The notes beneath the pieces were generated by a model. It was not told where the DNA came from and searched no databases. It worked only from the letters and a program-made list of their open reading frames with translations. A stretch of DNA of 64,000 bases from an uncultured Chloroflexia bacterium. Its GTDB lineage: Bacteria > Chloroflexota > Anaerolineae > Anaerolineales > UBA4823. The DNA lies in NCBI GenBank assembly GCA_963743215.1, contig CAVUOY010000007.1, positions 121,019-185,018 of the forward strand. The letters run 5' to 3'. Of this stretch, positions 2-25,773 are shown in pieces. Position 1 is the first letter of the stretch. Each line of letters begins with the position of its first letter. Made by a program: the position numbers and the translations under genes.

Positions 2-376
2 CTGGAATGCAGTAACTGCCATATGTTTACCAGCCCGCGCACCAATGATCCGATCCAGGGTCTGGTTCCAACAGGCCATACTTTTGCAGTAGGCTCGGAT
101 GCGTGTATCGCCTGTCACCAGGATACCGTTCACACCCGCAATGAAATTGTCAAGTTATCGGGTGAAGTCGCCCAGCTCGAGACGGTGGATACCGCTACGC
201 TTGCACAACAAGTACAGACTCAAGAGCAGCAAATCAGTGACCTCAAAACCCAAAGTACAAATCGTCTTTATATCGGCCTGGTACAGGGAGCAATCGTCGG
301 TTTGATGACCGGTGGTGCAGCTGCATGGGTGGTAAGTCGCGGCATTCGTGTCGTTGAGGTTAAAGAAGATGAGTAA
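2..376 (+). CDS. multihaem cytochrome c, C-terminal part (5' end outside window), C-terminal membrane anchor
   Basis: Frame open from base 2 to window edge; CSNCH (8-22) and CIACH haem motifs; C-terminal hydrophobic helix LYIGLVQGAIVGLMTGGAAAWVV; abuts next gene. Confidence 0.7.
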   Translation: MECSNCHMFTSPRTNDPIQGLVPTGHTFAVGSDACIACHQDTVHTRNEIVKLSGEVAQLETVDTATLAQQVQTQEQQISDLKTQSTNRLYIGLVQGAIVGLMTGGAAAWVVSRGIRVVEVKEDE

Positions 377-1217
377 GAAAAAGACCAAGATCAAGCTTAA
401 GCTTACCCGGCGAGATTTTTTCATCGTTGGCGGTACAGCAGCCGGATCTGTGGTTGCTGCACAGCTGTTGACGACGGGTCCACTTTCGCCTTTTGCCAGT
501 TTCAAGCAGGAACAGGTTGAAGGTATCGAAGAAGCGGGCACCAATGTCGCAGGGCATCACTGGGGGATGGTGATCAACCTGGATAAATGCATTGGCTGCG
601 AATACTGCCTGCGAGCCTGTTCCGCCACCAATGACGTGTGGGTGGACCCAGCTACAAAACAACCCGAGAAACCCTGGAATATCGTTGTGAATGAAAAAAC
701 TTCCACGGGAACACCCTTCTTTTTCAGCCGTCCTTGTTTGCATTGCGGAGATGCACCTTGTGTTGAAGTCTGCCCGGTCCGCGCCACCTATCACCGTGAG
801 GATGGGCTGGTGATAATGAATTATGACCGCTGCATCGGCTGCCGTTATTGTGAGATTGCCTGTCCTTATGATGCCCGAAAATTTAACTGGCAGGCACGCA
901 CAGATGTCAATCCATATATTCCAACTTGGGGGATTGCTGAAATCGACCGTCGCCCGCGAGGTGTGGTTGAAAAATGCACTTTTTGTATCCACCGGATCGA
1001 TGCTGGGTTAAAAGGCGGTTTTATGCCAGGTGAAGATCGTGAAGCCACCCCAGCCTGCGTGAATATCTGCCCGGTCGGCGCCCGTCTATTTGGCGACCTG
1101 AATGACCCTGCCAGCCCAGTGTCTCAAGCCATCTCTACAGAAGCAACTATACGCTTGCGTGAAGAATTGGGCACAGAGCCAAGCGTTTATTACGTCATCC
1201 CCAAGGAGGGCTTGTAA
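369..1217 (+). CDS. NrfC/PsrB/DmsB-type 4Fe-4S cluster subunit with twin-arginine signal
   Basis: LTRRDFF Tat motif; CIGCEYCLRAC, CLHCGDAPCVEVCP, CIGCRYCEIACP, CTFC...CVNICP cysteine groups; GAGG RBS before ATG 369 (ORF track start 348 is possible alternative). Confidence 0.85.
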   Translation: MSKKKTKIKLKLTRRDFFIVGGTAAGSVVAAQLLTTGPLSPFASFKQEQVEGIEEAGTNVAGHHWGMVINLDKCIGCEYCLRACSATNDVWVDPATKQPEKPWNIVVNEKTSTGTPFFFSRPCLHCGDAPCVEVCPVRATYHREDGLVIMNYDRCIGCRYCEIACPYDARKFNWQARTDVNPYIPTWGIAEIDRRPRGVVEKCTFCIHRIDAGLKGGFMPGEDREATPACVNICPVGARLFGDLNDPASPVSQAISTEATIRLREELGTEPSVYYVIPKEGL

Positions 1218-1218
1218 A

Positions 1219-2445
1219 ATGGCCACCCCTGTATTAGGTGAAAGAAAGTTATTCTCATTTAGCCCGGCCTTACTGGCCTGGTTCGGCTTGCTTGCTCTAA
1301 GCATTTTAATCGGCCTCGTTTCGGCATATCAAGTTTTTAGGAATGGCTTATATATCACCAGCATGTCTGATTCTGTCCCCTGGGGCTTATGGATTACCAT
1401 CGATCTATCCTCCATTGCACTCGGGGCGGGTGCATTCACACTATCAGCAGTGGTATATCTTTTTGGATTGAAGCGTTTCCAGCCTATCGTTCGATTGGCA
1501 GTTTTTGTTGGTTTTATCGGCTATACAGCCGCATTACTAACTTTAATTATGGACATTGGTCGGCCGGATCGTTTTTGGCATCCATGGGTATATTGGAATA
1601 TCCATTCGGTCTTGTGGGAAATTACCATGTGCATCACCATTTATTTAGTTGTGATGCTGGTTGAATTTGCCCCGGTCATTGCAGAATCGAAATTATTCAA
1701 TCGCTACTCATGGATCCACACCGCAGCAAGATATCTTCATCGCGCCGCACCCGTGCTTGCCCTAATTGGTTTGGGTATCTCTCTTTTGCACCAGTCCTCT
1801 CTGGGAGCTACCTATGGCATAGTAAAATCCCGCCCGATCTGGTTCAAACCCAGCATGCCGATCATGTTCATTCTCTCGGCTGTGGCGGTTGGACCTGCAT
1901 TAACCATGGCAGTTGCTCATGTAACCGAATGGATAACAGGAAAGCTAACCGTGCCGCATGAAGTATTGCGCGCCATAGCCCGCTTCAGTGGTTTTGCAAT
2001 CATGGTTTATGGCTATCTCCGCTTTTGGGATTTGGCAGCTGTCACATATTATGGTCGCACTCCTTCAGTCAGTGAGGCATTCAACCTGCTCAATCAGCAA
2101 ACTCCCTACAATTTCTCTTTTTGGATCTTTGAGATCATTCTGGGGGTGATATTGCCAGCGATCCTCTTCCTGACCCCCCGCTTCAATCGCAATCCGGCTT
2201 ACCTGGTTATCGGCACTTTTTTCGCAGTCATCGGTATCCTCATCAATCGCTGGAATGTCACCGTCGGAGGTCTGTTCGTCCCATTAAGCTATTCTCCAGG
2301 AACGCTCTATCAGCTTGCTCCGGGTAAATATTTCCCCGGTTTACCAGAATGGGGCATCGCTATCGGTATCATCGGATATGGATTCACTTTGCTCACCCTG
2401 GGCATTCGCTATCTGCCACTATTTGGTAAGGAAGATCATTCGTAA
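1219..2445 (+). CDS. NrfD/PsrC-family integral membrane quinol-interacting subunit
   Basis: About 8-10 hydrophobic helices, NrfD-like sequence (PWGLWITIDLSSIALGAGAF, GRPDRFWHP); AAGGAGGG RBS at 1203-1210, ATG 1 nt after the upstream stop. Confidence 0.8.
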   Translation: MATPVLGERKLFSFSPALLAWFGLLALSILIGLVSAYQVFRNGLYITSMSDSVPWGLWITIDLSSIALGAGAFTLSAVVYLFGLKRFQPIVRLAVFVGFIGYTAALLTLIMDIGRPDRFWHPWVYWNIHSVLWEITMCITIYLVVMLVEFAPVIAESKLFNRYSWIHTAARYLHRAAPVLALIGLGISLLHQSSLGATYGIVKSRPIWFKPSMPIMFILSAVAVGPALTMAVAHVTEWITGKLTVPHEVLRAIARFSGFAIMVYGYLRFWDLAAVTYYGRTPSVSEAFNLLNQQTPYNFSFWIFEIILGVILPAILFLTPRFNRNPAYLVIGTFFAVIGILINRWNVTVGGLFVPLSYSPGTLYQLAPGKYFPGLPEWGIAIGIIGYGFTLLTLGIRYLPLFGKEDHS

Positions 2446-2765: not shown

Positions 2766-4613
2766 ATGTCAAAGTCTTCTATCGTCAATAAAATGCCCGG
2801 TATATTTCTACTATTGGGTTTCCTCGTCCTGCTTAGCTTGATTTGGGTTTCTCCTTCCCAGGCCAGCCAGCCGAAACAGCAAACCGAAGAATATTGTTTA
2901 AGCTGCCATTCCAATTCTGATCTTTCACTTACCCTCCCAAGTGGCGAGACCCTTTCGTTATACATCAATTCTGACGAGTTACAAACCTCCGTCCACAGTC
3001 CGAATGGGATTGAATGCGAAGCCTGCCATACCAACATTACCACCTACCCTCATCCGGCGATTAATTACCAGAACAAGCGCGAATTAACCAGAGTTTATTA
3101 CACCGCCTGCCAGAAATGTCACCCCGATAACTATTCAAGGACTCAGGATAGCATGCACGCTCAGGTCGCTGAAGCAGGCAATCTCAACGCCCCCGTATGC
3201 ACTGATTGCCATGGATCCCATTATATCCACCCACCCAGTGAACCGCGCACCTTGATCCCGGAGACGTGTGGCAACTGTCACACCCAGGAATTTTCCGTCT
3301 ACCAGGCCAGCGTGCATGGGAATGCCTTGATTCAGGAATCAAATCCCGATGTTCCCGTCTGCACTACCTGCCATGGTGTGCACAATATTCACGACCCACG
3401 CACCCAGCAATTCAGGGTGCAGGAACCCGATTTATGCGCTAGCTGTCACGCAAATCAAGAAATGATGGCTAAATACGGCCTATCGGCCGACGTGTACAGC
3501 TTGTACAGCCTATCCTGGCATGGTGTGGATGTATCCATTTACCAGGCCCGCTGGCCAACAATCCAGCATACCTCTGCCGTATGTACCGATTGCCATGGCA
3601 TCCATGACATCCTAAAGCCTGACGATCCGAGCTCATCAGTCAATCCGAAAAACCTGCTGGTCACCTGCCAGAAGTGTCACCCGGGTGTCAGCTCGAATTG
3701 GACCGGCGCGTGGACCGGACATTACAAAGTCAGCCTACAGCGAACCCCAATTCTATTCTACGTCGATTCTTTTTACTCGATTTTTACGCCTGCCATCCTG
3801 TGGATTTGTGGGATATACGTTGCCCTTCAATTCATAAGGTTTATGGTTGATCGAGTAAGGAGGAAGCTTATGACCAACCAACATCCACCCAGCTCTATCT
3901 CACCGAATCATCCCGTCAGGTTGGTACGCACTTTTCCGCGCTTCAGCGTCAGTCAGCGTTCGGAACATGCAGTTTTTCTCCTTTGCATTGCAATCCTCCT
4001 GCTTACCGGTTTACCCCAGAAATTTAACACCTCCACCTGGAGTCAGGCGATCATCTCTTCACCTGACAGGTTGAACCTGATCCAGCAAATACACCATATC
4101 ACTGCATTGGTTCTATCCGCCCTGGTTTTATACCACCTGGGACGGGCGATTTACCTCATCGCCAGGCGGAAACTACCCGGTGATATGCTACCAACATTTC
4201 AGGATGTGAAAGATGCCTGGAATATGCTGCTCTACCTTATTTTCATAAAAAAACAGAAGCCTGCTTTTGGGAAATTCAATTTTGAGCAAAAGGTCACCTA
4301 TTGGTTCCTGTTCTTTTCAGTCGGGATCATGATCGTCTCCGGTTTTATCATGTGGTTTCCAGACGTGGTCACCCGCCTCCTACCTGGTGGAGTTATCCCA
4401 GGTGCGATTATGGCTCACAGTACAGAAGCGATCGTCACGATCATTTTTGTGATCCTCTGGCATTTCTACCATGTGCATCTCGAGCGTCTCAACCTGAGCA
4501 TATTTTCCGGCTGGCTAAATGATGAAGATATGCGCAGCTATCATTCCCTTGAATATGACCGGCTGATCAACAAGTCTCATACCGATCAGGATCCAGGAGA
4601 AATGAAGTCATGA
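2766..4613 (+). CDS. nonahaem cytochrome c fused to FdnI/HydC-type dihaem cytochrome b (CbcL-like)
   Basis: Signal/anchor helix, 9 CXXCH motifs, then a 4-helix domain with RSEHAVFLLCIAILLLTGLPQKF and WHFYHVH typical of formate-dehydrogenase gamma / Ni-Fe hydrogenase b-type cytochromes; AAGGAGG RBS. Confidence 0.85.
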   Translation: MSKSSIVNKMPGIFLLLGFLVLLSLIWVSPSQASQPKQQTEEYCLSCHSNSDLSLTLPSGETLSLYINSDELQTSVHSPNGIECEACHTNITTYPHPAINYQNKRELTRVYYTACQKCHPDNYSRTQDSMHAQVAEAGNLNAPVCTDCHGSHYIHPPSEPRTLIPETCGNCHTQEFSVYQASVHGNALIQESNPDVPVCTTCHGVHNIHDPRTQQFRVQEPDLCASCHANQEMMAKYGLSADVYSLYSLSWHGVDVSIYQARWPTIQHTSAVCTDCHGIHDILKPDDPSSSVNPKNLLVTCQKCHPGVSSNWTGAWTGHYKVSLQRTPILFYVDSFYSIFTPAILWICGIYVALQFIRFMVDRVRRKLMTNQHPPSSISPNHPVRLVRTFPRFSVSQRSEHAVFLLCIAILLLTGLPQKFNTSTWSQAIISSPDRLNLIQQIHHITALVLSALVLYHLGRAIYLIARRKLPGDMLPTFQDVKDAWNMLLYLIFIKKQKPAFGKFNFEQKVTYWFLFFSVGIMIVSGFIMWFPDVVTRLLPGGVIPGAIMAHSTEAIVTIIFVILWHFYHVHLERLNLSIFSGWLNDEDMRSYHSLEYDRLINKSHTDQDPGEMKS

Positions 4614-6058
4614 GGGCTGTAAGAACACACCTGTTTTTATACTTTATTGGTGTAATCCTCATCGGCAGCATTACCATTTTGCACTTTGCAACGGAGGCGA
4701 ATGCGGCACCAATCGAACAAGCCTCCCAAAACAACATTCAACAGCAGGGTTTGCCAAATGTGACTTCGGCTGAACCCATTGTGAGTAACGAAACCTGCTT
4801 GGAATGCCATGACCAGCCAGGGCTAACGATGACCCTTCTGAATGGGGATGTTCTGGATCTTTACGTCAATCCCGACGTTTATTCGGCCTCTATCCATGGT
4901 AAGGATGGGTATGCCTGTGTTCAATGTCATACCAACCTGGGAGAATATCCGCATCCCTTATTTACCGCAACCAGTCTTCGTGACGCTACGCTTCGCTTGA
5001 CTAACTTGTGTGACCGCTGTCATTCGGGCGAATATAACCTGACCATGGATAGTGTCCATTATGATAAGCTGGCTATCGGCATTAAAGAAGCCGCCGTTTG
5101 CACAGATTGCCATGGGTCACATGATGTGCATCAGTGGATCGACCCCAAAACCCAGGAAATACTACCCGAAGCCCGGCTAAGTATTCCTGCCACGTGTTCC
5201 AAGTGCCATAATGCAATCTATCAAAAGTATCGTACCAGCGTACACGGTGCTGCGCTGACCGATGAAGCAAACACGGATGTCCCCACCTGCATCGACTGCC
5301 ATGGGGTTCATAATATCGGGAATCCAACGACTGCAGAGTTCCGCCTAAAATCGCCTGAACTTTGTGCCGGTTGCCATACAAACCCCAATTTAATGGACAA
5401 ATACGGGATTTCTACCAATGTCTTGAATACCTATGTGGCTGATTTCCATGGTACAACGGTCACATTATTCGAGAAGCAATCCCCCGACGCTCAAACGAAT
5501 AAACCGGTTTGTTATGACTGCCATGGTGTGCACGACATCACCCGGGTGGACGACCCGAAAACCGGGATTGATATGCAGCAAAATCTCCTGGTGCGCTGTA
5601 AAGTCTGTCATCCCGATGCCACCAGCAATTTCCCTAGCGCCTGGATGTCTCATTACATCCCCTCGCCAGACCACTACTCCCTGGTTTATTACGTTGATCT
5701 ATTTTATAAATTCTTTATTCCAGCAGTCCTTGGTTTTATGCTAGCCATGGTTGGACTGGATGTAGGTCATACCGCCTTTATTAAAACACGGCGTGGAAAA
5801 CGTCATCTCGAACCCACCTCAACCCAGGCTCAAACAGATACAGCACCCGAATCATCCACGCTAGCTCCCTCGAGTGCAGAGGCTACCGACCAGCCAGTTC
5901 TATCTGAGAATGTTGAGATTAAGGGTGAACATAGTGAGCAAAGTGAGCTGAGTGCGCTCAACATGCCACTAGAAGAAGGCAACCAGGCTGATCAAAAAGA
6001 GGAAACCCAACCAGATAATCAGAGCGAAAATCCTGATGAGGAGGTGACCCATGAGTGA
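4610..6058 (+). CDS. nonahaem cytochrome c, membrane anchored, acidic low-complexity C-terminal tail
   Basis: ATGA start/stop overlap with upstream gene; 9 CXXCH motifs collinear with the c-domain of 2766-4613; C-terminal TM helix then about 100 aa rich in E/Q/S/T. Confidence 0.85.
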   Translation: MRAVRTHLFLYFIGVILIGSITILHFATEANAAPIEQASQNNIQQQGLPNVTSAEPIVSNETCLECHDQPGLTMTLLNGDVLDLYVNPDVYSASIHGKDGYACVQCHTNLGEYPHPLFTATSLRDATLRLTNLCDRCHSGEYNLTMDSVHYDKLAIGIKEAAVCTDCHGSHDVHQWIDPKTQEILPEARLSIPATCSKCHNAIYQKYRTSVHGAALTDEANTDVPTCIDCHGVHNIGNPTTAEFRLKSPELCAGCHTNPNLMDKYGISTNVLNTYVADFHGTTVTLFEKQSPDAQTNKPVCYDCHGVHDITRVDDPKTGIDMQQNLLVRCKVCHPDATSNFPSAWMSHYIPSPDHYSLVYYVDLFYKFFIPAVLGFMLAMVGLDVGHTAFIKTRRGKRHLEPTSTQAQTDTAPESSTLAPSSAEATDQPVLSENVEIKGEHSEQSELSALNMPLEEGNQADQKEETQPDNQSENPDEEVTHE

Positions 6059-7259
6059 CACCACTGTGGATACTCACTCAAGAGTCACCCCCTCCGATGA
6101 CAAGATCACATATTCGCGTTTTGATATTTCGCAGCGTATCGAGCACATTGTCTTTTTATTATCATTTACGATATTAGGCTTTACTGGATTGATCCAAAAA
6201 TTTTCCACCAGCCAGGTCAGCGATACCTTGATTTTTATTCTGGGTGGCATTGAACGGGTGCGCATTATTCACCATTACAGTGCCATCGTCATGATGATCG
6301 TGAGTGGATATCATGTGCTCGCGTTAGCTTATAAAATATTCGTCCTGCGGGTCAGATGGACCATGTTGCCCGTTATCGAGGACCTTCAACATCTCTTCCA
6401 GGATATTCTATTCTTCATCGGTATCCGAAAACATCGCGGCTATTACGGTCGTTATAACTACGCTGAAAAAGTCGAATACCTGGCTGTCGTATGGGGTACG
6501 ATAATCATGGGTCTATCGGGCTTCATGATGTGGAACCCCCTCTCCACCACCCGCCTGTTACCCGGAGATTTCATCCCCGCGGCTAAAGCCGCCCATGGAG
6601 CAGAGGCCATCCTGGCTGTTCTGGCAATCATCATCTGGCATTTCTATCACGTCCATGTCAAGCATTTCAATAAGAGCATGTTCAACGGCAAGATTACTCG
6701 CACAGATATGATACACGAACACCCCGCTGAGCTTGCTCAGTTAGAATCAGGTCAGGGGAATAAACGGATCCCGGTGAAAGTTCTCAGGCGCAGGCAACAG
6801 GTTTTCTTCCCGGCTGCCCTGATTTTCACCCTTGCATTCGGTTTCGGTATTTATAAGTTCGCCAATTTTGAGGTAACTGCAATAACCACAATCCCTCAAG
6901 GGGAAACTGCCCAGGTCTATGTTCCGGTAACACCTACCCCCAGACCATCTCCTACACCTCCACCCACCCTCGAACCCGGTGCTGAAGTAAGTGCCATGAC
7001 CTGGGAAGGCTATTTCTCCGGCTTATTCCGCAATCGATGCGGCTCTTGCCACGGGATAACCAATGTTGGAGGGTTGAGCCTTTCGACCTACCAGGATGCA
7101 CTCGTTGGCGGTAATTCAGGTCCGGCTATCGTTCCTGGCGACTCCGATAACAGTGTTCTGGTCCTAAAGCAATCCGCGGGCAATCATCCCGGGCAGCTGA
7201 CGATCGACGAGCTGGCTCAGGTCATTGCCTGGGTTAAGTCAGGTGCCCCAGAGAAATAA
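6051..7259 (+). CDS. FdnI/HydC-type cytochrome b with Pro-rich linker and C-terminal monohaem cytochrome c (PSCyt1-like) domain
   Basis: 8-nt overlap with upstream gene; FDISQRIEHIVFLLSFTILGFTGLIQKF and WHFYHVHV parallel the b-domain of 2766-4613; extra TM; PTPRPSPTPPPT linker; CGSCHG ... WVKSGAPEK tail. Confidence 0.8.
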   Translation: MSDTTVDTHSRVTPSDDKITYSRFDISQRIEHIVFLLSFTILGFTGLIQKFSTSQVSDTLIFILGGIERVRIIHHYSAIVMMIVSGYHVLALAYKIFVLRVRWTMLPVIEDLQHLFQDILFFIGIRKHRGYYGRYNYAEKVEYLAVVWGTIIMGLSGFMMWNPLSTTRLLPGDFIPAAKAAHGAEAILAVLAIIIWHFYHVHVKHFNKSMFNGKITRTDMIHEHPAELAQLESGQGNKRIPVKVLRRRQQVFFPAALIFTLAFGFGIYKFANFEVTAITTIPQGETAQVYVPVTPTPRPSPTPPPTLEPGAEVSAMTWEGYFSGLFRNRCGSCHGITNVGGLSLSTYQDALVGGNSGPAIVPGDSDNSVLVLKQSAGNHPGQLTIDELAQVIAWVKSGAPEK

Positions 7260-7272
7260 TGGAGTACAACAC

Positions 7273-8928
7273 ATGAGAAATTTTTTCAAACGCCTGGGTA
7301 AAGCATTACGTACTTTCTTTTTCCCGCCCGCTGACTCCAAAATGTGGATTAGAGTGCTACCATACGCCATTTTAGGCGTTCTGACATTGATCGTCTTGAT
7401 TGGGGCAGCATATGGATGGCAATACACCAATAGCCCACAATTTTGTGGGACCTCCTGCCATACCATGCCTCCTGAATACTCTGCTTATCTGGCATCACCG
7501 CATGCCCGGGTGGATTGTGTAGAGTGCCATATCGGTCGTGGTTTCATCGCCACGCAGATTACCCGCAAAGCTGGAGACCTTCGGCATGTTTTTGCGACTG
7601 TGCTGAAAAACTATGATTACCCGATTTTCGCCACGAACATGCGCCCTGCCAGAGACACTTGCGAGAAATGTCACAACCCGGATAAATTTTCAGATGACAG
7701 CCTGCGTGAAGACAAGCGTTACCAAAATGATCTCGATAATACCGCTTATTCTATTTTCCTCAGCCTCAAAACTGGTGGCGGTACCTCCCGCCAGGGACTT
7801 GGAAAGGGTATCCACTGGCATGTGGAAAATCGAGTGCTGTATTATGCCACCGACGAGCTGCAGGAGAATATTCCTTATATCCGTGTTTATAATGCGGATG
7901 GCACCTATACTGAATATACCGATATCGCTTCCAGTTATAACCCGGCAGAACTCAAGGAATCTGACTTGAAAGAGATGGATTGCGTAACCTGTCATAATCG
8001 CGTCACCCACCTCGTGCCTATGCCAGCAGATGAAGTCGATACCGCCCTGGCGCGCGGGCTCATCGATAAAACTATTCCAGATATCCGCTTGAAAGCAGTC
8101 GAGGTTCTCAGCGCTGCTTACACCTCCCAACAAGAAGGGTTGAATGGCATTGCCGGGTTGAATAATTATTACCAGGCCTATTACCCTGATTATTACGCTG
8201 CTAACACTGCTGCTATTCAAAACGCCATCGCGTATATCCAGAGTGTGTATTCCTCATCAGTCAACCTGGATCAAAAATCAGATTGGAATACACATCCTAA
8301 TAACATCGGTCACATGGATTTCCCGGGTTGTTTTCGCTGCCATGATGGCAAACACCTGGATGCTTTGCAGCAGGCGGTTCGGTTGGAATGCAATCTTTGC
8401 CATACGGTGCCCACAGTCGCAGGGCCGTCAAAATTTGTCGCAGATATTGAAATCTCGCGTGGCCCTGAACCCGAAACTCATCTGAATGCCAACTGGATTG
8501 CGATCCACAACCAGGTATTTAACCAGACCTGCAGTGATTGCCACACCACTGAGAATCCCGGTGGAACCGATAACTCCTCTTTTTGCTCGAACAGTGCCTG
8601 CCATGGAATAACCTGGAAGTATGCGGGTCTTTCTGCTCCTGAGCTGCGCCAGACGATCCTGTCTTCACTTCCCCCTACCCCCACCCCATCTCCATTGGAC
8701 CTGTCAGGAGCACTGACTTTTGATGCGTCCATCGGACCATTGTTCCAATCCCGCTGCGGGTCTTGCCATGGTGAGAATGGCATACAGGGGCTAAATCTAA
8801 CCACCTACCAGACGGCAATCCAGGGTGGAACGAATGGCTCTGTGATCATCCCGGGTGACGCAAATGCGAGTCCGCTTATCCAGAAACAATCTGGTGCCCT
8901 GCCTCATTTTGGCCAGCTTAACGCCTGA
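7273..8928 (+). CDS. NapC/NirT(NrfH/CymA)-like membrane-anchored multihaem cytochrome c with C-terminal PSCyt1-like domain (tail frameshifted, continues to 8980 in +1 frame)
   Basis: N-terminal TM helix followed by FCGTSCHTM...CVECHIG...CEKCH arrangement typical of NapC/NirT quinol dehydrogenases; 7 CXXCH plus CX3CH and CX4CH; see findings for frameshift. Confidence 0.7.
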   Translation: MRNFFKRLGKALRTFFFPPADSKMWIRVLPYAILGVLTLIVLIGAAYGWQYTNSPQFCGTSCHTMPPEYSAYLASPHARVDCVECHIGRGFIATQITRKAGDLRHVFATVLKNYDYPIFATNMRPARDTCEKCHNPDKFSDDSLREDKRYQNDLDNTAYSIFLSLKTGGGTSRQGLGKGIHWHVENRVLYYATDELQENIPYIRVYNADGTYTEYTDIASSYNPAELKESDLKEMDCVTCHNRVTHLVPMPADEVDTALARGLIDKTIPDIRLKAVEVLSAAYTSQQEGLNGIAGLNNYYQAYYPDYYAANTAAIQNAIAYIQSVYSSSVNLDQKSDWNTHPNNIGHMDFPGCFRCHDGKHLDALQQAVRLECNLCHTVPTVAGPSKFVADIEISRGPEPETHLNANWIAIHNQVFNQTCSDCHTTENPGGTDNSSFCSNSACHGITWKYAGLSAPELRQTILSSLPPTPTPSPLDLSGALTFDASIGPLFQSRCGSCHGENGIQGLNLTTYQTAIQGGTNGSVIIPGDANASPLIQKQSGALPHFGQLNA

Positions 8929-9012
8929 AGAGTTGAACCTGGTCATTGAGTGGATCAATGCTGGAGCACCGGAAAAATAATTAATCACCACCATTGCCAA
9001 AGGAGGTGAAAT

Positions 9013-9495
9013 ATGGGTGAAACGAAAGAGCTCAGCCGGCGGAATTTTATGCAAGCCGCTATCTGGGGAATTGGGGGGTTAATTGGGATTGGGTTTGGGG
9101 TGCCGGCGGTTGCATATGTCGTCGGTCCTGCATTAAAAAGCTCACAAACACAAACCTGGATGCGTCTGGGTCCAACTTCCAAGGTGGAGCTAGGCACTCC
9201 GACATTGTTTACCTTCACCATCCAAACCCAGACGGGTTGGATCGTGAATGCACAAGAAGTATCGGTATATGTGCTTTCTACTGACGGACGCACCTATATT
9301 GCAATGTCGAATATCTGCACCCACCTTGGCTGTCACATCCGTTGGATTAGTGAGCAGAATCAATTCTTCTGCCCTTGCCATAATGGAGTATTTGACGTTT
9401 CCGGTAATGTCATTTCCGGACCACCTCCTCGCCCGCTGGCGCGCTACGATGTCAAAATTGAAAATGATCAATTGTATGTGTTGGTAGGAGGTTGA
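9013..9495 (+). CDS. Rieske [2Fe-2S] subunit of a cytochrome bc/b6f-type complex
   Basis: SRRNFMQAA Tat motif plus TM; CTHLGCH and CPCHNGVF Rieske boxes; AAGGAGG RBS. Confidence 0.9.
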   Translation: MGETKELSRRNFMQAAIWGIGGLIGIGFGVPAVAYVVGPALKSSQTQTWMRLGPTSKVELGTPTLFTFTIQTQTGWIVNAQEVSVYVLSTDGRTYIAMSNICTHLGCHIRWISEQNQFFCPCHNGVFDVSGNVISGPPPRPLARYDVKIENDQLYVLVGG

Positions 9496-9496
9496 G

Positions 9497-10162
9497 ATGG
9501 CATCAAAAATAAGCCAATGGCTGGATGAACGTACTTCGATCAGCAAGATTTGGGAAGTTATCTTCCTGCGGAAAATACCAAAGGTCAATTGGTTTTATAC
9601 ACTCGGGAGTGCCTCCTTATTCGTTGCCCTCAATCAGGCAATTACCGGCATCTTATTGACCATTTATTACGTCCCCACACCCGATCACGCCTACGACAGT
9701 GTTCAATATATTACCACCCAGGTTCCTTTAGGATGGCTGATCCGTGGGCTGCACCATTGGGGTGCCAGCGCCTTGATCATTCTGGTTGTCTTGCATATGC
9801 TCAGGGTGATCCTGTTCGGAGCTTATAAATTTCCCCGTGAAGTCACCTGGTTTACCGGCGTGATCTTGCTATTGGTGGTAATTGGTTTCGGCTTTACGGG
9901 CTATCTATTACCTTGGGATCAAAAAGCATTCTGGGCAACTACCGTCGGTACACAAATCGCGGGAACTCCACCGCTGATAGGGAATTATCTGCTGCGCATT
10001 ATCCGCGGTGGCAGCGAGATATCTGCAGTCACATTGGTACGCTTCTTCGGTACCCATGTATGGGTACTCCCAGCCATCTTACTCCTGCTCATCGGGATCC
10101 ACCTTTTCCTGGTCATCCGTAACGGCATCAGTGCAGTGCCAAAGAAAGGCGGCGACCAATGA
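9497..10162 (+). CDS. cytochrome b6-like (cytochrome b N-terminal four-helix) subunit
   Basis: WFYTLGSASLF..., GLHHWGASALIILVVLHMLRV, GYLLPWDQKAFWATTV conserved cytochrome b signatures; starts 2 nt after Rieske stop. Confidence 0.9.
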   Translation: MASKISQWLDERTSISKIWEVIFLRKIPKVNWFYTLGSASLFVALNQAITGILLTIYYVPTPDHAYDSVQYITTQVPLGWLIRGLHHWGASALIILVVLHMLRVILFGAYKFPREVTWFTGVILLLVVIGFGFTGYLLPWDQKAFWATTVGTQIAGTPPLIGNYLLRIIRGGSEISAVTLVRFFGTHVWVLPAILLLLIGIHLFLVIRNGISAVPKKGGDQ

Positions 10163-12279
10163 ACGAGAAAGAAAAGCAGGCTTACCTTGAGAAATATCAC
10201 CAGGAAAAAGAGCACGGCGTCCCATTTTTCCCAGATATCATCTTCAAAGACGTCGTAATATCCTTTGTCATATTTTTAATCTTGATCGTGCTCGCATCCC
10301 GTCTCGGGGCTCCCCTGGAAGCCCGTGCAAATCCGGCGGATACGTCTTACACCCCACAACCCGAATGGTATTTCTTATTCCTATACCAACTATTAAAATA
10401 CTTCCCCGGTAAGCTCGAGGTGGTGGGTATTGTGCTCATCCCTATGGTTGCGATCATTGTGCTATTTTTATTACCACTCCTGGACCGGTCCACGAAACGT
10501 CATTTTCTGGATCGTCCGATCGTCTCTGGCGTCACGCTGTTGGTTGTGGCAGGAATAATCACGCTCACCATCCTGTCAGTCCGTGAAGCTCCTCCTCCGG
10601 TTCAGGCGACCCAAGGAGATCCCGTCGCCCTGCTATATACCCAAAACTGCGCGCCCTGCCATGGTTCATCGATCAGTGTTCCAGCCGGGACAAACCTTCA
10701 TAACCTGATTGCCCAAGGTTCACACGCAGGAATGCCCGCCTGGAGTGGAGATTTATCCTCCGATCAGATCGATGAGCTTGCCGGTTTCATTCTTTCACCG
10801 GGGGGAAGTCAGCTTTTCAATACGAATTGTGGATCCTGCCATAAAGTAGAAGATTTGGTCGGTGGAAATCCACTCGACCTAAAAAACGCTATTGATGAAG
10901 GTCTTAACTTTTCCCCGCATGCTCAACTCCAGGCTTCTGACTTGTCTGCAAATTTAACCTCCGACGAGAAAACCACATTACTTAATTTCTTGATTGCGCC
11001 GGATGGTCAGCGTTTATTCACCATCTATTGTTCAGCTTGCCATGGTCAATCCGTTGCCTATTCAGGTGAAGAAGCTCAGCTACGCCAGACAATTATCCAG
11101 GGGGGGCAGCATATTACCATGCCTGCCTGGCAAAACACACTCAGCACAGCTCAGATCGAGACACTGGCAAATTTCGTTGTGATTCCTTCTTCGGAACCTA
11201 CTGGACCAACTTTATTCCGACAGTACTGCTCTACCTGCCATGGAACCCTCATCCCCACCGCCACAGACGTCGATCAAGCTCGTCAGGTTATCGCCACTGG
11301 AGGCGCACATCAAACCATGCCAGACTGGGGAAAGGTACTCACCCAGGCTCAGATCGATGCCCTGGTGAATTTCGTCATATCCTCAACTCAAGGAACTTCT
11401 GTTGAGCGGGGTCAAACCTTGTTTGCCCAGAACTGCGCCATTTGCCACGGTGATTTTGGAGAAGGCGGTCCCAATCCGGCTAATCAAAATCAGATCATTG
11501 CTCCCATAGGATCAGCAGAATTTCTGAATACCCGCGATGATACTACCTTGTTCCAGATCATCTCTCAAGGGCAACCCGACCAGGGTATGTCGCCATTCGG
11601 CTCTGCCAATGGGGGTAATTTAGATGATGATCAGATCAATTCAATCGTGGCGTACATTCGCTCATGGCAGGCAAACCCGCCTGTGACAGCACCACCGCAA
11701 TATACCATTCCTATCCTGTCACTTTCTGCCAGCGATGTGTATAAAACCATCTGTACCCAATGCCATGGGCAAGAAGGTGCAGGAACCATATTGGGACCAA
11801 CATTAAACGACTTGTCTGACGACACCGATGAGGAAATTTCCACGGTGATCGGTCAGGGTATATCGAATACCAACATGCTCTCGTTTGGTTCCTTCTTATC
11901 AGATAGTCAAATCCAGGGATTGGTGGCACTTATTCGCCAGTTCCCTCCATCAGAAACGTCCCCGCTGGGAACTCCCACTGTTGAGCCAATTTCATCCACT
12001 CCTACATTTGAAGCGGATATCTTGCCCATTTTCGAACAAGACTGTAAGGTGTGCCATGGAACATTAGGCGGCTGGGACAGCACTACTTATCAAGCGGTGA
12101 TGACTACGGGTGATCATGCTCCGGTTGTGATCCCTGGAGACACGATCAATAGTCTCTTGGCTCAAAAACTGGTAGGAACTTCTACGACTGGCGGAATTAT
12201 GCCTCCGGGTGGAGAGCTTCCCGATGCGATCATAAAAATTATCCTGGACTGGATCGCGGCAGGTGCACCTGAGAAATAG
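10159..12279 (+). CDS. cytochrome bc subunit IV (cytochrome b C-terminal part) fused to seven monohaem cytochrome c domains
   Basis: ATGA overlap with cytochrome b6 gene; PEWYFLFLYQLLKYFPG motif and 3 TM helices; then CAPCHG, CGSCH, CSACHG, CSTCHG, CAICHG, CTQCHG, CKVCHG each with downstream Met-containing class I-like segment; ends WIAAGAPEK. Confidence 0.85.
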   Translation: MNEKEKQAYLEKYHQEKEHGVPFFPDIIFKDVVISFVIFLILIVLASRLGAPLEARANPADTSYTPQPEWYFLFLYQLLKYFPGKLEVVGIVLIPMVAIIVLFLLPLLDRSTKRHFLDRPIVSGVTLLVVAGIITLTILSVREAPPPVQATQGDPVALLYTQNCAPCHGSSISVPAGTNLHNLIAQGSHAGMPAWSGDLSSDQIDELAGFILSPGGSQLFNTNCGSCHKVEDLVGGNPLDLKNAIDEGLNFSPHAQLQASDLSANLTSDEKTTLLNFLIAPDGQRLFTIYCSACHGQSVAYSGEEAQLRQTIIQGGQHITMPAWQNTLSTAQIETLANFVVIPSSEPTGPTLFRQYCSTCHGTLIPTATDVDQARQVIATGGAHQTMPDWGKVLTQAQIDALVNFVISSTQGTSVERGQTLFAQNCAICHGDFGEGGPNPANQNQIIAPIGSAEFLNTRDDTTLFQIISQGQPDQGMSPFGSANGGNLDDDQINSIVAYIRSWQANPPVTAPPQYTIPILSLSASDVYKTICTQCHGQEGAGTILGPTLNDLSDDTDEEISTVIGQGISNTNMLSFGSFLSDSQIQGLVALIRQFPPSETSPLGTPTVEPISSTPTFEADILPIFEQDCKVCHGTLGGWDSTTYQAVMTTGDHAPVVIPGDTINSLLAQKLVGTSTTGGIMPPGGELPDAIIKIILDWIAAGAPEK

Positions 12280-12281
12280 GC

Positions 12282-13769
12282 GTGATGGCTGAGTTTTTTA
12301 CCAATAACATTATCCTTGTATACTTCTTTTATGGATTGTCCTTCTTTGTGATGGGATTGGCAGTCCTGCTCGAATTTGGACATGCCTCAAAGTTGGATTT
12401 TTCACGTGCCTTACGCCCATTAATTGGTTTCGGTTTAATCCATGGATGCCACGAGTGGTTCGAGATGTTTCTGCTTATTCGCGAGCGCGTTACCGGACCA
12501 TTCGCTGCTCCTTGGATTTTGCCGGTTCGATTAATGGCTTTAGCAACATCATTTCTATTTTTAATCGCCTTTGGAGCTCGGCTGATCAGCGGGGTTGAAA
12601 AACGTCGCTTATACGTTGGAATGCTATCGATAATCACCGCAATCTGGGTGATTGGTCTGCTTGGGGTACTGTTCAACCCCTCCACAAGCCAAAGCCGCGC
12701 CATCGCTGCCGACGTCTATACCCGCTATGCTTTGGCAATTCCAGGCGCAGCTCTCACTGTTTGGGGATTGATCATTCAGCGCCGTAAATTCATCCAGATT
12801 GGCATGTCCAGTTTTGGGTTTGATGTCTTGTTGGCAGCCATTGCTTTTGGTTTGTATGGGGGTATTGGCCAATTATTTGTTAGCAAGAGTATCATCTTTC
12901 CTTCTCAATATTTAAACTCTGCAGAATTCCTAAGCTGGTTTGGGTTTCCGATTCAGGTCTTCCGGGCTGGCACAGCCACCATGGCTGCCATCTTCATCAC
13001 CCGTTCACTACGCGCTTTTGAGGTCGAAAGCAACCGCCGCATCGAAGAGCTTCGTGACGCCCAGTTGGCTGAACAACAGCGACTGGATGACTTACGGGCA
13101 GAATTACTCCATCGGACCGTGATCGCCCAGGAATCTGAACGGCGACGCATCGCCCGTGAGTTACACGATGAAACCGGTCAGACTTTAACCGCTCTCGGAA
13201 TGGGTTTACGAGGAATGTCTGAGACCATCTCCACCAATCGCGACCGGGCGATTGAACAGGCTAGTCAGCTCGAAAAATTAGCCATGGCTGGGGTTGAAGA
13301 GCTGCAGCATATGGTCTCTGGTCTTCATCCTCCTCAGCTGGATGATTTGGGCTTGTTGGCAGCATTGCGTTGGTATACATCTGATATTAGTAATCGCACC
13401 GGTTTGGTCATTAATATAGTCAACCAAGGTGGTAAGCCAAAATTAACTTCAGACATACGGGCTGTGGTATTCCGCATTGCACAGGAAGCGATCAACAATG
13501 TCGTCCGCCACGCCAATGCCAGTCGCATTGATATCCAATTGGTCTATACCCACAATAATATCTATCTTCGGGTTGAAGATAACGGTCAGGGTTTTAATAC
13601 CGAACTGGTCTTGAAAAAAAAGCCAGGCAGACCAACCGCCTGGGGATTGCTTGGAATGGTTGAACGTGCCTCGTTGGTAGGTGGATCTTGTAATATTTTT
13701 TCTCATCCCGGGAAAGGCACACTTATAGAAGTCAATGTACCCATTATCGGAGAGACACAAAATGCATGA
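12282..13769 (+). CDS. sensor histidine kinase, HisKA_3/NarX-LiaS type, multi-pass membrane sensor domain
   Basis: About 6-7 N-terminal TM helices with no large periplasmic loop; ERRRIARELHDETGQTLTAL phospho-acceptor box; HATPase region (NNVVRHANA, DNGQGF, GLLGMVERA). Confidence 0.85.
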   Translation: MMAEFFTNNIILVYFFYGLSFFVMGLAVLLEFGHASKLDFSRALRPLIGFGLIHGCHEWFEMFLLIRERVTGPFAAPWILPVRLMALATSFLFLIAFGARLISGVEKRRLYVGMLSIITAIWVIGLLGVLFNPSTSQSRAIAADVYTRYALAIPGAALTVWGLIIQRRKFIQIGMSSFGFDVLLAAIAFGLYGGIGQLFVSKSIIFPSQYLNSAEFLSWFGFPIQVFRAGTATMAAIFITRSLRAFEVESNRRIEELRDAQLAEQQRLDDLRAELLHRTVIAQESERRRIARELHDETGQTLTALGMGLRGMSETISTNRDRAIEQASQLEKLAMAGVEELQHMVSGLHPPQLDDLGLLAALRWYTSDISNRTGLVINIVNQGGKPKLTSDIRAVVFRIAQEAINNVVRHANASRIDIQLVYTHNNIYLRVEDNGQGFNTELVLKKKPGRPTAWGLLGMVERASLVGGSCNIFSHPGKGTLIEVNVPIIGETQNA

Positions 13770-14415
13770 TATTAATTTATTACTCGTTGATGATCATCAA
13801 GTGGTACGTACCGGATTAAGAATGCTTTTGGAAGGTCAGCCAGATATGAAAATTGTTGGTGAAGCTGATAGCGGTCTACAAGCACTCGAAAAAGCCAAAG
13901 AATTATCGCCCGATGTAATCGTGATGGATATTACCCTGCCAGATATCTCCGGGATTGAGGCTACAAAACGGATCAAGGAAGAGCTGCCAAATACGGCAGT
14001 GGTTGCTCTGACAATCCATGAGGATGAGCAATATTTCTTTGAGATGTTGCAAGCGGGTGCCTCAGGTTACGTTCCAAAACGTGCCGCTCCAGAAGACCTG
14101 ATCACCTCTATTCGGGCTGCCTATGCAGGGGAAATTTATATATATCCTTCCTTGGCTAAAGCCCTGGTAGCTGACTTCCTGGGTCGTTCATCCCAAGGGA
14201 ACGAGAAGTCATCCATCGATGGGTTGACGACCCGTGAACAAGAAGTGTTGGGCCTTTTAGCTGAGGGGTTGAGCAATGACGAAATTGGAGAATCATTACA
14301 AATCAGCAAACACACGGTTGCCCGCCATCGCGAAAACCTGATGCGCAAGCTGGAACTGCACTCACGCAGCGAATTGGTAAAATACGCCATACGGAAGGGA
14401 TTAATCTCAGCTTGA
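13762..14415 (+). CDS. NarL/FixJ-family response regulator (REC + LuxR-type HTH)
   Basis: LLVDDHQVVR...DVIVMDITLPD receiver motifs; C-terminal LTTREQEVLGLLAEGLSNDEIGESLQISKHTV; GGAGAG RBS; overlaps kinase stop by 8 nt. Confidence 0.9.
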   Translation: MHDINLLLVDDHQVVRTGLRMLLEGQPDMKIVGEADSGLQALEKAKELSPDVIVMDITLPDISGIEATKRIKEELPNTAVVALTIHEDEQYFFEMLQAGASGYVPKRAAPEDLITSIRAAYAGEIYIYPSLAKALVADFLGRSSQGNEKSSIDGLTTREQEVLGLLAEGLSNDEIGESLQISKHTVARHRENLMRKLELHSRSELVKYAIRKGLISA

Positions 14416-24784: not shown

Positions 24785-25773
24785 ATGAAGATTGCGTTTA
24801 CAGGTGCAGGCTATATTATCAACATCCATGCCCAGGCTGCTGCCCAGCAGCAGGATGTGGAGCTTTTTGCTATTGTTAACCGATCTTCAGAAAAAACTCG
24901 CGGTTTAATGCGAAAGTTCAACATCCAGCATCAGTTCGAGACCGTTGAACAGCTGCTTGCCGCAGGTGGGGTGGATGTGCTGGTGGTTGGCACGCCCAAC
25001 TATTTACACGCTTCGCAGGCTATCACTGCGCTAAAAGCCGGTGTGCATGTGATGGTCGAGAAACCTATGGCGATGAATGCCCAAGAAGCCTGCCAAATGT
25101 TGGCAGCCAGCCGAGAGTCCGGATCTCTTTAATGGTCGCGCATTGCTGGCGCTTCGACCCGGAGGTCTTATGGTTACGCCAGCAAGTTGATACAGGCCGC
25201 CTGGGTAAGATTATCCGCACCAAAGGCTATGGCGTGCATACCCATTGGGGACCCTCGGGTTGGTTCACCGAGAAGAAATACGCCGGTGGTGGAGCCATGG
25301 CCGACGTGGGCATTCATGCATTGGATACCGCCCGGTTTCTGCTTGATGATCCCCAGCCGGAATCCGTATATGCGCGTATCGGCACATATTACACATCTCA
25401 GGATGTGGATGATACCGGCATATTGATCGTCAATTGGGATATTGGTGCGGTATCGTACATTGAGTCGGGCTGGTGGCAGCCTCACGCCGATGGTCCTGAA
25501 GCTGCTACCCAGCTGTATGGGACTGCAGGGTTTGGGCAGATATATCCCACCTATTTACAACAGCAGTCGGAAAAAATCGATCCTGGGTTTCCCTACCCTC
25601 GTACTGACCATGCTCCGCAAAGCCTATACAACGATCAGATGAATTACTTTATCCAATGCATACGCCAAAATCACCAGCCAAACCCAGGTGGACTTGAAGG
25701 GTGGATTAACATGAAGATCATTGATGCAGCCTATAAAAGCTCAACCACAGGTCAGGTCGTTACGGTGGAGTGA
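24785..25773 (+). pseudogene. Gfo/Idh/MocA-family oxidoreductase, split by a 1-nt frameshift at 25128-25132 (pseudogene or sequencing error)
   Basis: ORF 24785-25132 is the NAD-binding Rossmann half (KIAFTGAGYI...VMVEKPMA), ORF 25132-25773 the C-terminal half (VAHCWRFDPE); span is 3n+2. Confidence 0.75.

Follow-up and report, generated by a model that had tools for sequence, protein, structure and literature searches.

The DNA analysed here (the window, 64 kb of an uncultured member of the Anaerolineales) holds two paralogous modules in tandem, in the order c1-b1-c2-b2, each made up of a nonahaem cytochrome c and a dihaem cytochrome b. Each would constitute a two-subunit bc-type quinol:cytochrome c oxidoreductase, and on sequence grounds the locus belongs to the already known CbcL/MtoC/MtrH family. 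In the window as assembled the first pair reads as one polypeptide and the second as two. This fused/split contrast is probably a sequencing error, because it hangs on a single extra A set against about 20 related loci, in a sequence that contains several other single-base frameshifts; the organism most likely has separate c1 (368 aa) and b1 (247 aa) proteins, like its relatives.

The three open reading frames of the locus are present, with their overlaps, as the initial annotation described them:

2766-4613, + strand: ORF A, 615 aa; nine CXXCH, signal peptide, TM anchor, FdnI-type cytochrome b
4610-6058, + strand: ORF B, 482 aa; nine CXXCH, TM anchor, acidic tail
6051-7259, + strand: ORF C, 402 aa; cytochrome b, TM helix, monohaem c

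ORF A starts at the ATG at 2766, with AGGAGG 8 nt upstream, and overlaps ORF B by ATGA; ORF B overlaps ORF C by 8 nt. In ORF A the TM anchor (~aa 336-361) is followed by four further TM helices. ORF B has a signal peptide and one TM anchor, and the acidic tail ascribed to it was found (90 aa, 23% D+E); ORF C has four TM helices plus a fifth one, a linker rich in Pro and a single CGSCH. The genes and junction elements are these:

2766..3873, + strand: c1, nonahaem c subunit; signal peptide, C-terminal TM anchor
3858..3872, + strand: Shine-Dalgarno AGGAGG (3858-3863) and ATG (3870-3872) of b1, intact, now internal to the fused ORF
3864..3865, + strand: one-base insertion, AA versus a single A in all relatives
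3870..4613, + strand: b1, FdnI/HydC-type dihaem cytochrome b, 247 aa, 4 TM; PF01292 E 7e-16
4610..6058, + strand: c2, paralogous nonahaem c; signal peptide, TM anchor, 90-aa acidic cytoplasmic tail
6051..7259, + strand: b2, paralogous dihaem b; fifth TM, Pro-rich linker, periplasmic PSCyt1-like monohaem c

Pfam places PF01292 (Ni_hydr_CYTB) at aa 392-570 of ORF A (E 7e-16) and at aa 23-213 of ORF C (E 1e-8), and PSCyt1 (PF07635) at aa 330-371 of ORF C (E 9e-8); multihaem families match the N-terminal part of ORF A and ORF B. That these are two paralogous c+b modules stands: BLASTP aligns the c part of ORF A with ORF B at 41% identity over 337 aa (E 2e-94), with all nine haem motifs collinear as had been noticed, and the b part with ORF C at 39% identity over 222 aa (E 3e-44); the shared b motifs, FSVSQRSEHAVFLL / FDISQRIEHIVFLL and WHFYHVH, are also there. 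Both sequence similarities are far beyond chance. The further supposition, that the two copies are each other's closest relatives, fails: b2 shares 53% identity with the corresponding part of P0121, a fused Anaerolineae protein, as against 39% with b1, and pair 2 groups with the fused proteins P0121/P0125 (bootstrap 78% in the c tree, 97% in the b tree). The extra TM of b2, described in the initial annotation as gained, is probably no gain: a C-terminal TM after the b domain is also present in the Desulfuromonas CbcL orthologue discussed below and in other fused relatives (by hydropathy in P0235, for example), and P0125 has a C-terminal TM together with a c-type tail.

Four His of b1, at positions 33, 75, 183 and 198 (ORF A 401, 443, 551 and 566), are the same in all of 38 sequences, and they line up with the haem-ligand His H18, H57, H155 and H169 of E. 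coli FdnI (PDB 1kqf_C, E 1e-5). The resemblance to FdnI (PDB 1KQF chain C) consists of PF01292 and these four His in register, and it has limits: TIGR01583 (formate dehydrogenase gamma) gives the two b domains 68 and 41 bits against an equivalog cutoff of 116 (b1 region, E 1e-18); no formate dehydrogenase alpha/beta (FdnGH) genes are adjacent, the neighbours being cytochromes, with no molybdopterin/FeS formate dehydrogenase subunits among them; and the partner is a multihaem cytochrome. Across 42 aligned c domains nine His beyond those of the CXXCH motifs are each at least 93% conserved, six of them invariant, which suggests bis-His ligation. In CbcL/MtoC/MtrH proteins all c haems are bis-His, with the distal His conserved and no conserved Met (PMC9129911); in the 42 domains one Met column is 90% conserved, so that the absence of a conserved Met does not hold strictly. 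The c domains also match the MtrA/DmsE-type decahaem cytochromes (TIGR03508, E 2e-11 and 4e-12, far under cutoff; PDB 6r2q chain A, E 5e-6), which would fit a linear haem-wire fold, but they have nine haems, not ten, and are membrane-anchored, not porin-inserted.

The CbcL-like composition proposed for ORF A turns out to be end-to-end homology. BLASTP aligns ORF A, at residues 33-608, with a Desulfuromonas thiophila CbcL orthologue at 25% identity over 610 columns (E 2e-59); the same orthologue matches ORF B at E 6e-23 and ORF C at E 1e-17. (A technical note: the sequence of the orthologue was pieced together across a frameshift in L024, and its identification depends on matches of 86-94% with OCR fragments of the G. 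sulfurreducens protein; CbcL itself is not among the top 150 family representatives, and PDB 28pb_A, considered as a candidate CbcL structure, was rejected as a weak match.) What the locus has in common with CbcL (GSU0274) and its Desulfuromonadales orthologues is the nine-CXXCH periplasmic domain, the distal His, the TM and the FdnI/HydC-type dihaem b. The nine CXXCH of ORF A and ORF B are collinear with those of the D. thiophila orthologue, behind an N-terminal hydrophobic signal with AXA-type sites, and a loop motif, P-x-F-x-D-[IV]-K-D...KP-x-F, is common to both. The differences go beyond the low identity: 1) the c domain has 250 aa in CbcL and ~295 aa here; 2) in every relative c and b are separate and translationally coupled, as is probably the case in this organism too; 3) there are two paralogous tandem copies; 4) b1 lacks the C-terminal sixth TM (by hydropathy), which is present in the D. 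thiophila orthologue, while b2 has one (aa 250-268) and a monohaem c besides.

The survey of CbcL/MtoC/MtrH proteins by Zhong and Shi in 2018 described fused c+b proteins of 416-1034 aa with 3-23 CXXCH from 15 phyla, with no Chloroflexi members (PMC6295460). The fused proteins collected here give the same picture: they account for 84 of the top 150 family representatives, have 439-1005 aa and 5-25 CXXCH, and place c N-terminal to b in all 84. The Anaerolineales members, in contrast, are mostly split into two genes, and for that reason would escape a search aimed at fused proteins. Geobacter CbcBA (Cbc5) is likewise made up of a separate dihaem b and a multihaem c with a C-terminal TM anchor. 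CbcB, however, is reported to be without sequence homology to the CbcL b domain and to have only three b-haem His, the fourth ligand being proposed to come from the CbcA anchor (bioRxiv 10.1101/2021.04.15.440034). Here all four His lie in the b subunit, the c1 anchor (FYSIFTPAILWICGIYVALQFIRFMV) is without His, and there are nine c haems against the seven of CbcA.

What, then, joins c1 to b1? The inserted A (context AGGAGG-A-AGCTTATGA) puts the two genes in one frame and so creates the 615-aa ORF 2766-4613. It sits 6 nt ahead of the c1 stop codon, and its only effect at the protein level is to change RRSL, followed by the stop, to RRKL-M...; without it c1 is a 368-aa protein that ends in ...RRSL at the TGA at 3871-3873. 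An alignment of the junction from 18 loci has AGGAGGAGCTTATGA in the relatives and AGGAGGAAGCTTATGA in the window. In every relative the same Shine-Dalgarno/ATG element stands ahead of b1, which there is a gene of its own.

Both pairs are split in about 20 related loci from Anaerolineales (amino acid identity up to 92%), where c1 (368 aa) shares an ATGA overlap with b1 (247 aa); one split relative is 92.7% identical to the window in nucleotide sequence. Relatives of c1 with 80-83% identity have 368-377 aa and end in ...VDRVRRSL, and 119 of the best 120 of 5402 significant matches are c-only proteins of 351-383 aa. The 247-aa b1 gene is found in L001 (gene map c376-b247-c435-b402) and in L004-L022. 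The tail of c2 varies in length, the protein having 408-512 aa in relatives; b2 is conserved there at 402 aa. The sister of the window, L004 (bootstrap 96% in the c tree, 98% in the b tree), is split: over 10.6 kb the two sequences differ by only three indels. The insertion at 3864/3865 is one of these, and a 9-nt in-frame indel lies in the c2 tail. In L007 pair 2 looks fused (829 aa), but only because a run of N spans the junction. In the window c and b share one polypeptide in ORF A only through the inserted A, pair 2 is split in the window and pair 1 is split in about 20 relatives, and the initial annotation's view of the locus as a snapshot of gene fission or fusion cannot be relied upon. 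Fusion and fission did occur in the CbcL/MtoC/MtrH family, elsewhere in the tree. The L003 lineage, at 61% identity, has a c1-b1 fusion in three independent assemblies, with a different junction (RVRKEQPDMTTKQ); this fusion is genuine, in a more distant lineage and independent of the one in the window. The deep relatives are mostly fused.

At least four other single-base frameshifts break conserved genes in the same 64 kb. One of them falls within this operon, in the gene that follows b2:

7273..8980, + strand: NrfH/NapC-type multihaem quinol dehydrogenase-like protein; TIGR03153 NrfH E 2e-17

This protein carries the same C-terminal monohaem domain as b2. A single-A insertion at 8920/8921, seen against both L004 and L005, cuts it short at 8928; the shifted frame still encodes TPEELNLVIEWINAGAPEK, followed by a stop, which is the tail conserved in all relatives, and correction by one base restores 568 aa. 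Elsewhere, around 25128, 40750 and 52855, three further genes are interrupted, for a Gfo/Idh/MocA protein, a CAX exchanger and an EamA transporter, and a one-base correction returns each to full length. Related MAGs from similar sources (L018, L021, L022) are frameshift-ridden too. The insertions at 3864/3865 and at 8920 both adjoin AGCTTA (at 3865-3870 in the former case), an association noticed post hoc and with n=2.

Error in assembly or base-calling is the probable origin of the extra A, and the contrary reading, a real and very recent mutation that gives this strain a fused CbcL-type protein of 615 aa, we consider unlikely. The topology allows it: the c1 anchor finishes on the cytoplasmic side, and it is there that the N-terminus of an FdnI-type b begins, and the order of the domains is that of every natural fusion collected. 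A fused protein is evidently viable in the L003 lineage and in the fused family representatives; the mutation would be the first step of a fusion already fixed in the former, and free b1 may persist by internal initiation, its Shine-Dalgarno and ATG being intact. Position also speaks for a real event. The extra A falls within a segment of ~22 nt in which a +1 insertion yields a clean fusion, and we estimate the chance of landing there under a uniform error model (4 errors per 55 kb) at ~0.1-0.2%. The two insertions in the operon lie 6 nt and 57 nt before a stop, near the 3' ends of genes, which is where real frameshifts are best tolerated and where uniform errors rarely land (~5% of positions each). 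Indeed, a rough comparison of rates under uniform errors favours the real event, and only the post hoc association with AGCTTA tips it back. Against it stands the company that the allele keeps: it is unique among the ~20 related loci and the best 120 of the significant matches, and other frameshifts in the same sequence knock out conserved genes; one such frameshift lies in the operon itself, is likewise an inserted A and likewise stands beside AGCTTA. Nor was the allele recovered independently: a metagenome scan for the fused junction CGRGTRAGGAGGAAGCTTATGAC gave no second occurrence (two matches proved to be unrelated loci with a chance match at the Shine-Dalgarno and ATG), and exact-protein look-ups of ORF A, b1, the Rieske protein and cytochrome b6 returned no record.

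There is also the notion that the AGGAGGAGCTTATGA junction of the relatives is a programmed -1 frameshift site, at which some fused c1-b1 is made already, so that the insertion merely hard-wires it. It is true that b1 occupies the -1 frame with respect to c1, that the junction is strongly conserved in nucleotides and that an SD-like AGGAGG lies just upstream. The junction has no X XXY YYZ slippery heptamer, however, and programmed frameshifting is set aside on that account. To account for the conservation in full it is enough to invoke the b1 Shine-Dalgarno, the Arg-Arg codons and ATGA, a stop/start overlap typical of translational coupling, and the junctions of L014, L020 and L021 differ and yet keep the ATGA overlap. 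We regard this notion as highly improbable.

Two separate, coupled subunits remain our preferred reading. The genes would be translationally coupled through their overlapping stop/start codons (ATGA; ATGAGTGA). Each FdnI-type dihaem b would exchange electrons with the menaquinone pool, carry them across the membrane and pass them to a periplasm-facing nonahaem bis-His c, held to the membrane by its C-terminal TM helix; module 2 would add a tethered monohaem c domain. Both modules lie inside a conserved respiratory gene cluster of the Anaerolineales, the remainder of which runs as follows in the window:

23..2445, + strand: upstream module of octahaem cytochrome end, 4Fe-4S protein and NrfD-type subunit
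23-376, + strand: octahaem cytochrome, C-terminal end
348-1217, + strand: Tat-signal 4Fe-4S protein (Pfam Fer4)
1219-2445, + strand: NrfD-type membrane subunit (Pfam NrfD)
9013..12279, + strand: downstream Rieske / cytochrome b6 / subunit IV fused to c-type domains (Pfam)

Among NCBIfam models DsrO matches the upstream module above cutoff (212 bits) and QrcC and QrcD match it under cutoff, and relatives have two octahaem genes upstream. The c domains fused to subunit IV comprise seven CXXCH and five PF13442 stretches, and the last protein of this group ends in the same monohaem ...GAPEK domain (tail alignment). The Rieske/b module is present in some relatives and absent from L001, L013, L015, L016 and L021. 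A 10-haem lipoprotein and other multihaem proteins are nearby.

Which way do the electrons go? CbcL, the only experimentally studied member of the family, is a menaquinol oxidase for low-potential acceptors (PMC9129911; bioRxiv 10.1101/2022.08.31.506072); it is needed for acceptors below ~-0.1 V, and its physiology is established in Geobacter only. From Geobacter CbcL, at only 25% identity, we infer that the modules would act as quinol oxidases; the direction of electron flow and the position of the quinol site are likewise presumptive, and sequence alone does not fix the former. The modules might, as has been suggested for the MtoC/MtrH members, run in reverse as quinone reductases that draw electrons from donors in the periplasm or outside the cell (e.g., Fe(II) or a cathode), and this independently of the fusion question. 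Some members of the family do come from Fe(II) oxidizers, proposals for it have covered either direction (PMC6295460), and the Rieske/cytochrome b complex of the cluster, with its several c-type domains, could serve uphill or downhill routes. The precedent of CbcL points the other way, as do the 10-haem lipoprotein and multihaem proteins nearby, which are typical of outward electron transfer, and we hold the reverse direction to be doubtful.

A gene fusion in a MAG at an overlapping stop/start junction needs confirmation at the level of reads, since one indel is enough to create its appearance. Should the A nevertheless be real, which we do not expect, two coupled subunits would have become a CbcL-type fusion by a single nucleotide, with the internal ribosome-binding site kept, and a single mutation at an overlapping stop/start junction would be a way for respiratory bc modules to switch between the split and the fused state. 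Provided that the modules function as CbcL does, Anaerolineales of soil and sediment would possess, in one conserved cluster, several ways out for electrons that are linked to quinol: two CbcL-type modules, an NrfCD-type module, an NrfH-type cytochrome, sometimes a Rieske/b complex, and a 10-haem lipoprotein. Such a cluster would suggest that electron transfer, extracellular or periplasmic, takes place in a phylum for which the 2018 survey listed no CbcL homologues.

Two c+b modules lie in tandem, encoded by three overlapping open reading frames.

Genes of the tandem (positions in the window)
2766-4613, plus strand: A, 615 aa; ATG start with AGGAGG 8 nt upstream
4610-6058, plus strand: B (nonahaem subunit c2), 482 aa; ATGA overlap with A
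6051-7259, plus strand: C (cytochrome b subunit b2), 402 aa; 8-nt overlap with B

A comprises a signal peptide, nine CXXCH motifs and a TM anchor (approximately residues 336-361), then four further TM helices; B a signal peptide, nine CXXCH, a single TM anchor and a 90-aa tail (Asp+Glu = 23%); C has four TM helices plus a fifth, with a Pro-rich linker and a single CGSCH. In Pfam, the FdnI/HydC-family profile PF01292 (Ni_hydr_CYTB) matches A (392-570, E 7e-16) and C (23-213, E 1e-8), PSCyt1 matches C (330-371), and multihaem families match B and the N-terminal part of A. These frames, their haem motifs, the family of their b domains and the reading as two tandem modules, all proposed in the initial annotation, are borne out by sequence, Pfam and alignment: the c parts of A and B (c1, c2) share 41% identity across 337 residues (E 2e-94), every motif collinear, and the b parts of A and C (b1, b2) share 39% across 222 residues (E 3e-44). 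The c2 tail, with a 9-nt in-frame indel at 5951-5959 relative to the nearest related locus, is highly variable in length (c2 measures 408-512 aa across relatives) and is therefore regarded as a fast-evolving, low-complexity cytoplasmic extension.

Is one copy truly fused and the other split? The fused ORF is present as first described, but its state hangs on a single A, and the close relatives are split. A has 5402 significant matches among 5.8 billion proteins; 119 of the best 120 are c-only proteins (351-383 aa, 55-60% query coverage), those at 80-83% identity terminating ...VDRVRRSL, and the one fused protein among these 120 is P0001 (609 aa, 61% identity). The contig encoding another relative, P0006 (locus L001, an Anaerolineales MAG), is syntenic with the window, its order being octahaem, octahaem, FeS, NrfD, c (376 aa), b (247 aa), c (435 aa), b+PSCyt1 (402 aa), NrfH-like (569 aa). 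A one-genome-per-species scan yielded 20 loci, all from Anaerolineales/Chloroflexota MAGs and many from long-read bins with Mb-size contigs; L004 is nearest (92% amino-acid identity). Pair 1 is split at all loci with readable genes, into c1 (~368 aa, counted from its likely start) and a 247-aa b1, with a 4-nt overlap. An apparent pair-2 fusion at L007 (an 829-aa ORF) is spurious: a run of N at about 9080-9190 covers the c2/b2 junction.

The closest relatives' c1/b1 junction reads ...GAT CGA GTR AGG AGG AGC TTA TGA, with the b1 ATG within TTATGA; in more distant relatives it differs slightly, the ATGA overlap being kept. The window reads ...AGG AGG AAG CTT ATG ACC: an extra A at 3864/3865, 6 nt ahead of the stop, merges the frames (RRSL-stop becomes RRKL-MTNQ...), leaving intact the Shine-Dalgarno sequence (3858-3863) and start codon (ATG, 3870) of b1. 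Removing it gives c1 of 368 aa and b1 of 247 aa, as in the relatives. Across 10.6 kb the window and L004 are 92.7% identical in nucleotides, with just three indels: this A, the 9 nt in B's acidic tail, and another A at 8920/8921. The last cuts off the NrfH-like protein (start 7273) at 8928; the frame shifted past 8920 still carries TPEELNLVIEWINAGAPEK and a stop (8915-8980), the C-terminus conserved in all relatives, and without the extra A the protein has its expected size, 568 aa. Comparable damage lies elsewhere in the window.

Further genes restored by a one-base correction
24785-25773: Gfo/Idh/MocA oxidoreductase, split at ~25130; corrected, 329 aa with both domains complete
52325-53414, minus strand: CAX calcium/proton exchanger, split at ~52855; corrected, matches TIGR00378 over 1-349/349 (362 bits, cutoff 211)
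39991-40920, minus strand: EamA transporter, roughly the first 60 residues off-frame; corrected, 309 aa with two EamA domains

The 64 kb thus hold at least five frame-changing single-base indels, and because broken conserved genes regain full length after one-base correction, we regard the window sequence as indel-prone. Similarly sourced relatives (L018, L021, L022) and the Desulfuromonas thiophila CbcL locus also show frameshift trouble. At each of the two operon insertions the added A lies directly beside an AGCTTA hexamer (3865-3870; 8915-8920), a motif that occurs 11 times within the first 10.6 kb and 26 times across the whole window; this post hoc association (n=2) hints at a motif- or methylation-linked systematic base-calling error.

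We take the A at 3864/3865 to be probably an artefact. One can argue instead for a real, strain-level c1-b1 fusion: the insertion falls in a ~22-nt stretch where a +1 insertion fuses the genes cleanly, each operon indel is close to the 3' end of a gene, and c1-b1 fusion is plainly tolerated. That reading is nonetheless doubtful, since the window allele is unique among the about 20 related loci, a metagenome junction scan and exact-protein look-ups did not find it elsewhere, L004, the window's sister, is split, the surrounding sequence is indel-prone to the point of gene-destroying frameshifts, and the two operon insertions are alike in base and context. The contrast of fused and split copies that made the locus attractive is probably an error.

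Fusion has a firmer footing elsewhere. The P0001 cluster also contains two full-length fused proteins (609-610 aa) encoded in other assemblies; the junction is RVRKEQPDMTTKQ in all three, and the DNA there is several indels away from that of split relatives. The P0001 contig (L003, 676-5021; a related Anaerolineae lineage) encodes a fused protein (609 aa), c (451 aa) and b (392 aa); this "fused plus split" arrangement is real, because three independent assemblies share the fused junction. An exhaustive search found 4983 relatives among 1.84 billion cluster representatives; 84 of the best 150 are fused, c N-terminal to b in every case, with 5-25 CXXCH (named examples: Anaerolineae, Candidatus Schekmanbacteria, Deltaproteobacteria).

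Bootstrap support (c tree; b tree) in neighbour-joining trees, 200 bootstraps; distance-based, rooting uncertain
Pair 1 clade: 100; 100
Pair 2 clade: 97; 100
Pair 2 + fused relatives P0121/P0125: 78; 97
Window + L004: 96; 98
Pair 1 + pair 2 + P0121/P0125: 24; 46

The two copies are accordingly not each other's closest paralogues, an outcome that the initial annotation had named as refuting its reading: pair 2 groups with P0121/P0125, and b2 is 53% identical to the P0121 b part vs 39% to b1. From the trees and these identities it follows that the duplication is older than these lineages and that c and b co-evolved in cis. The sampled outgroups are all fused; the sequences suggest, under uncertain rooting, a fused ancestor with at least two state changes plus re-fusion in L003.

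CbcL is described as a periplasmic domain with nine bis-His haems (residues 30-279) fused to a dihaem b domain of six helices (PMC9129911; bioRxiv 10.1101/2022.08.31.506072). Our comparison used the D. thiophila orthologue (L024, 3697-5540; nine CXXCH), identified by 86-94% matches to fragments of G. sulfurreducens CbcL. It is annotated as two ORFs (434 + 179 aa) owing to a frameshift mid b domain, which probably reflects one more assembly error in a public genome. A aligns with it over residues 33-608 (25% identity, E 2e-59), upholding the proposed CbcL-like composition; the E values for B and C are 6e-23 and 1e-17. Unlike b1, b2 has the C-terminal TM helix found in CbcL. Predicted b-haem histidines at A residues 401, 443, 551 and 566 are invariant in 38 sequences and align with the haem ligands of E. 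coli FdnI (PDB 1KQF, chain C), H18, H57, H155 and H169. Nine additional histidines of the c domains are conserved at ≥93%, six of them invariant.

Between the NrfH-like gene and a histidine kinase lies a Rieske/cytochrome b6/subunit IV module (9013-12279; seven CXXCH in its last protein), present in some relatives (e.g. L004-L012) and missing from L001, L013, L015, L016 and L021. The HisKA_3 kinase and a LuxR-type regulator (12282-14415) precede a candidate surface-tethered decahaem cytochrome (15175-17397), whose 740 aa include 10 CXXCH, a linker rich in Pro and Thr, and a lipoprotein-type signal (…LAIAAC).

On the model of FdnI and CbcL, menaquinol would bind to the b subunit, and electrons would cross the membrane via two stacked haems b to enter the wire of nine haems in the c subunit, which its anchor helix would hold at the membrane; the quinol protons would probably be set free towards the cytoplasm, as has been argued for CbcL (bioRxiv 10.1101/2022.08.31.506072). 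Subunit translation would be coupled through the ATGA and ATGAGTGA overlaps. Homologous PSCyt1-like monohaem domains, all finishing GAPEK (pairwise identity 56%, 40% and 33%), end b2 (7000-7259), the NrfH-like protein (8730-8980) and the subunit IV-cytochrome c protein (12010-12279); this suggests a common electron exit, and the domain may serve for shared docking or output. For the CbcL/MtoC/MtrH family, which spans 15 phyla, electron flow has been proposed in both directions, and Chloroflexi are absent from the members listed in a 2018 survey (PMC6295460); b + multihaem c neighbours "reminiscent of CbcL", and Chloroflexi b-c fusions, have already been remarked on (bioRxiv 10.1101/2021.04.15.440034). 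The tandem split modules of the Anaerolineales are new members of this known family.
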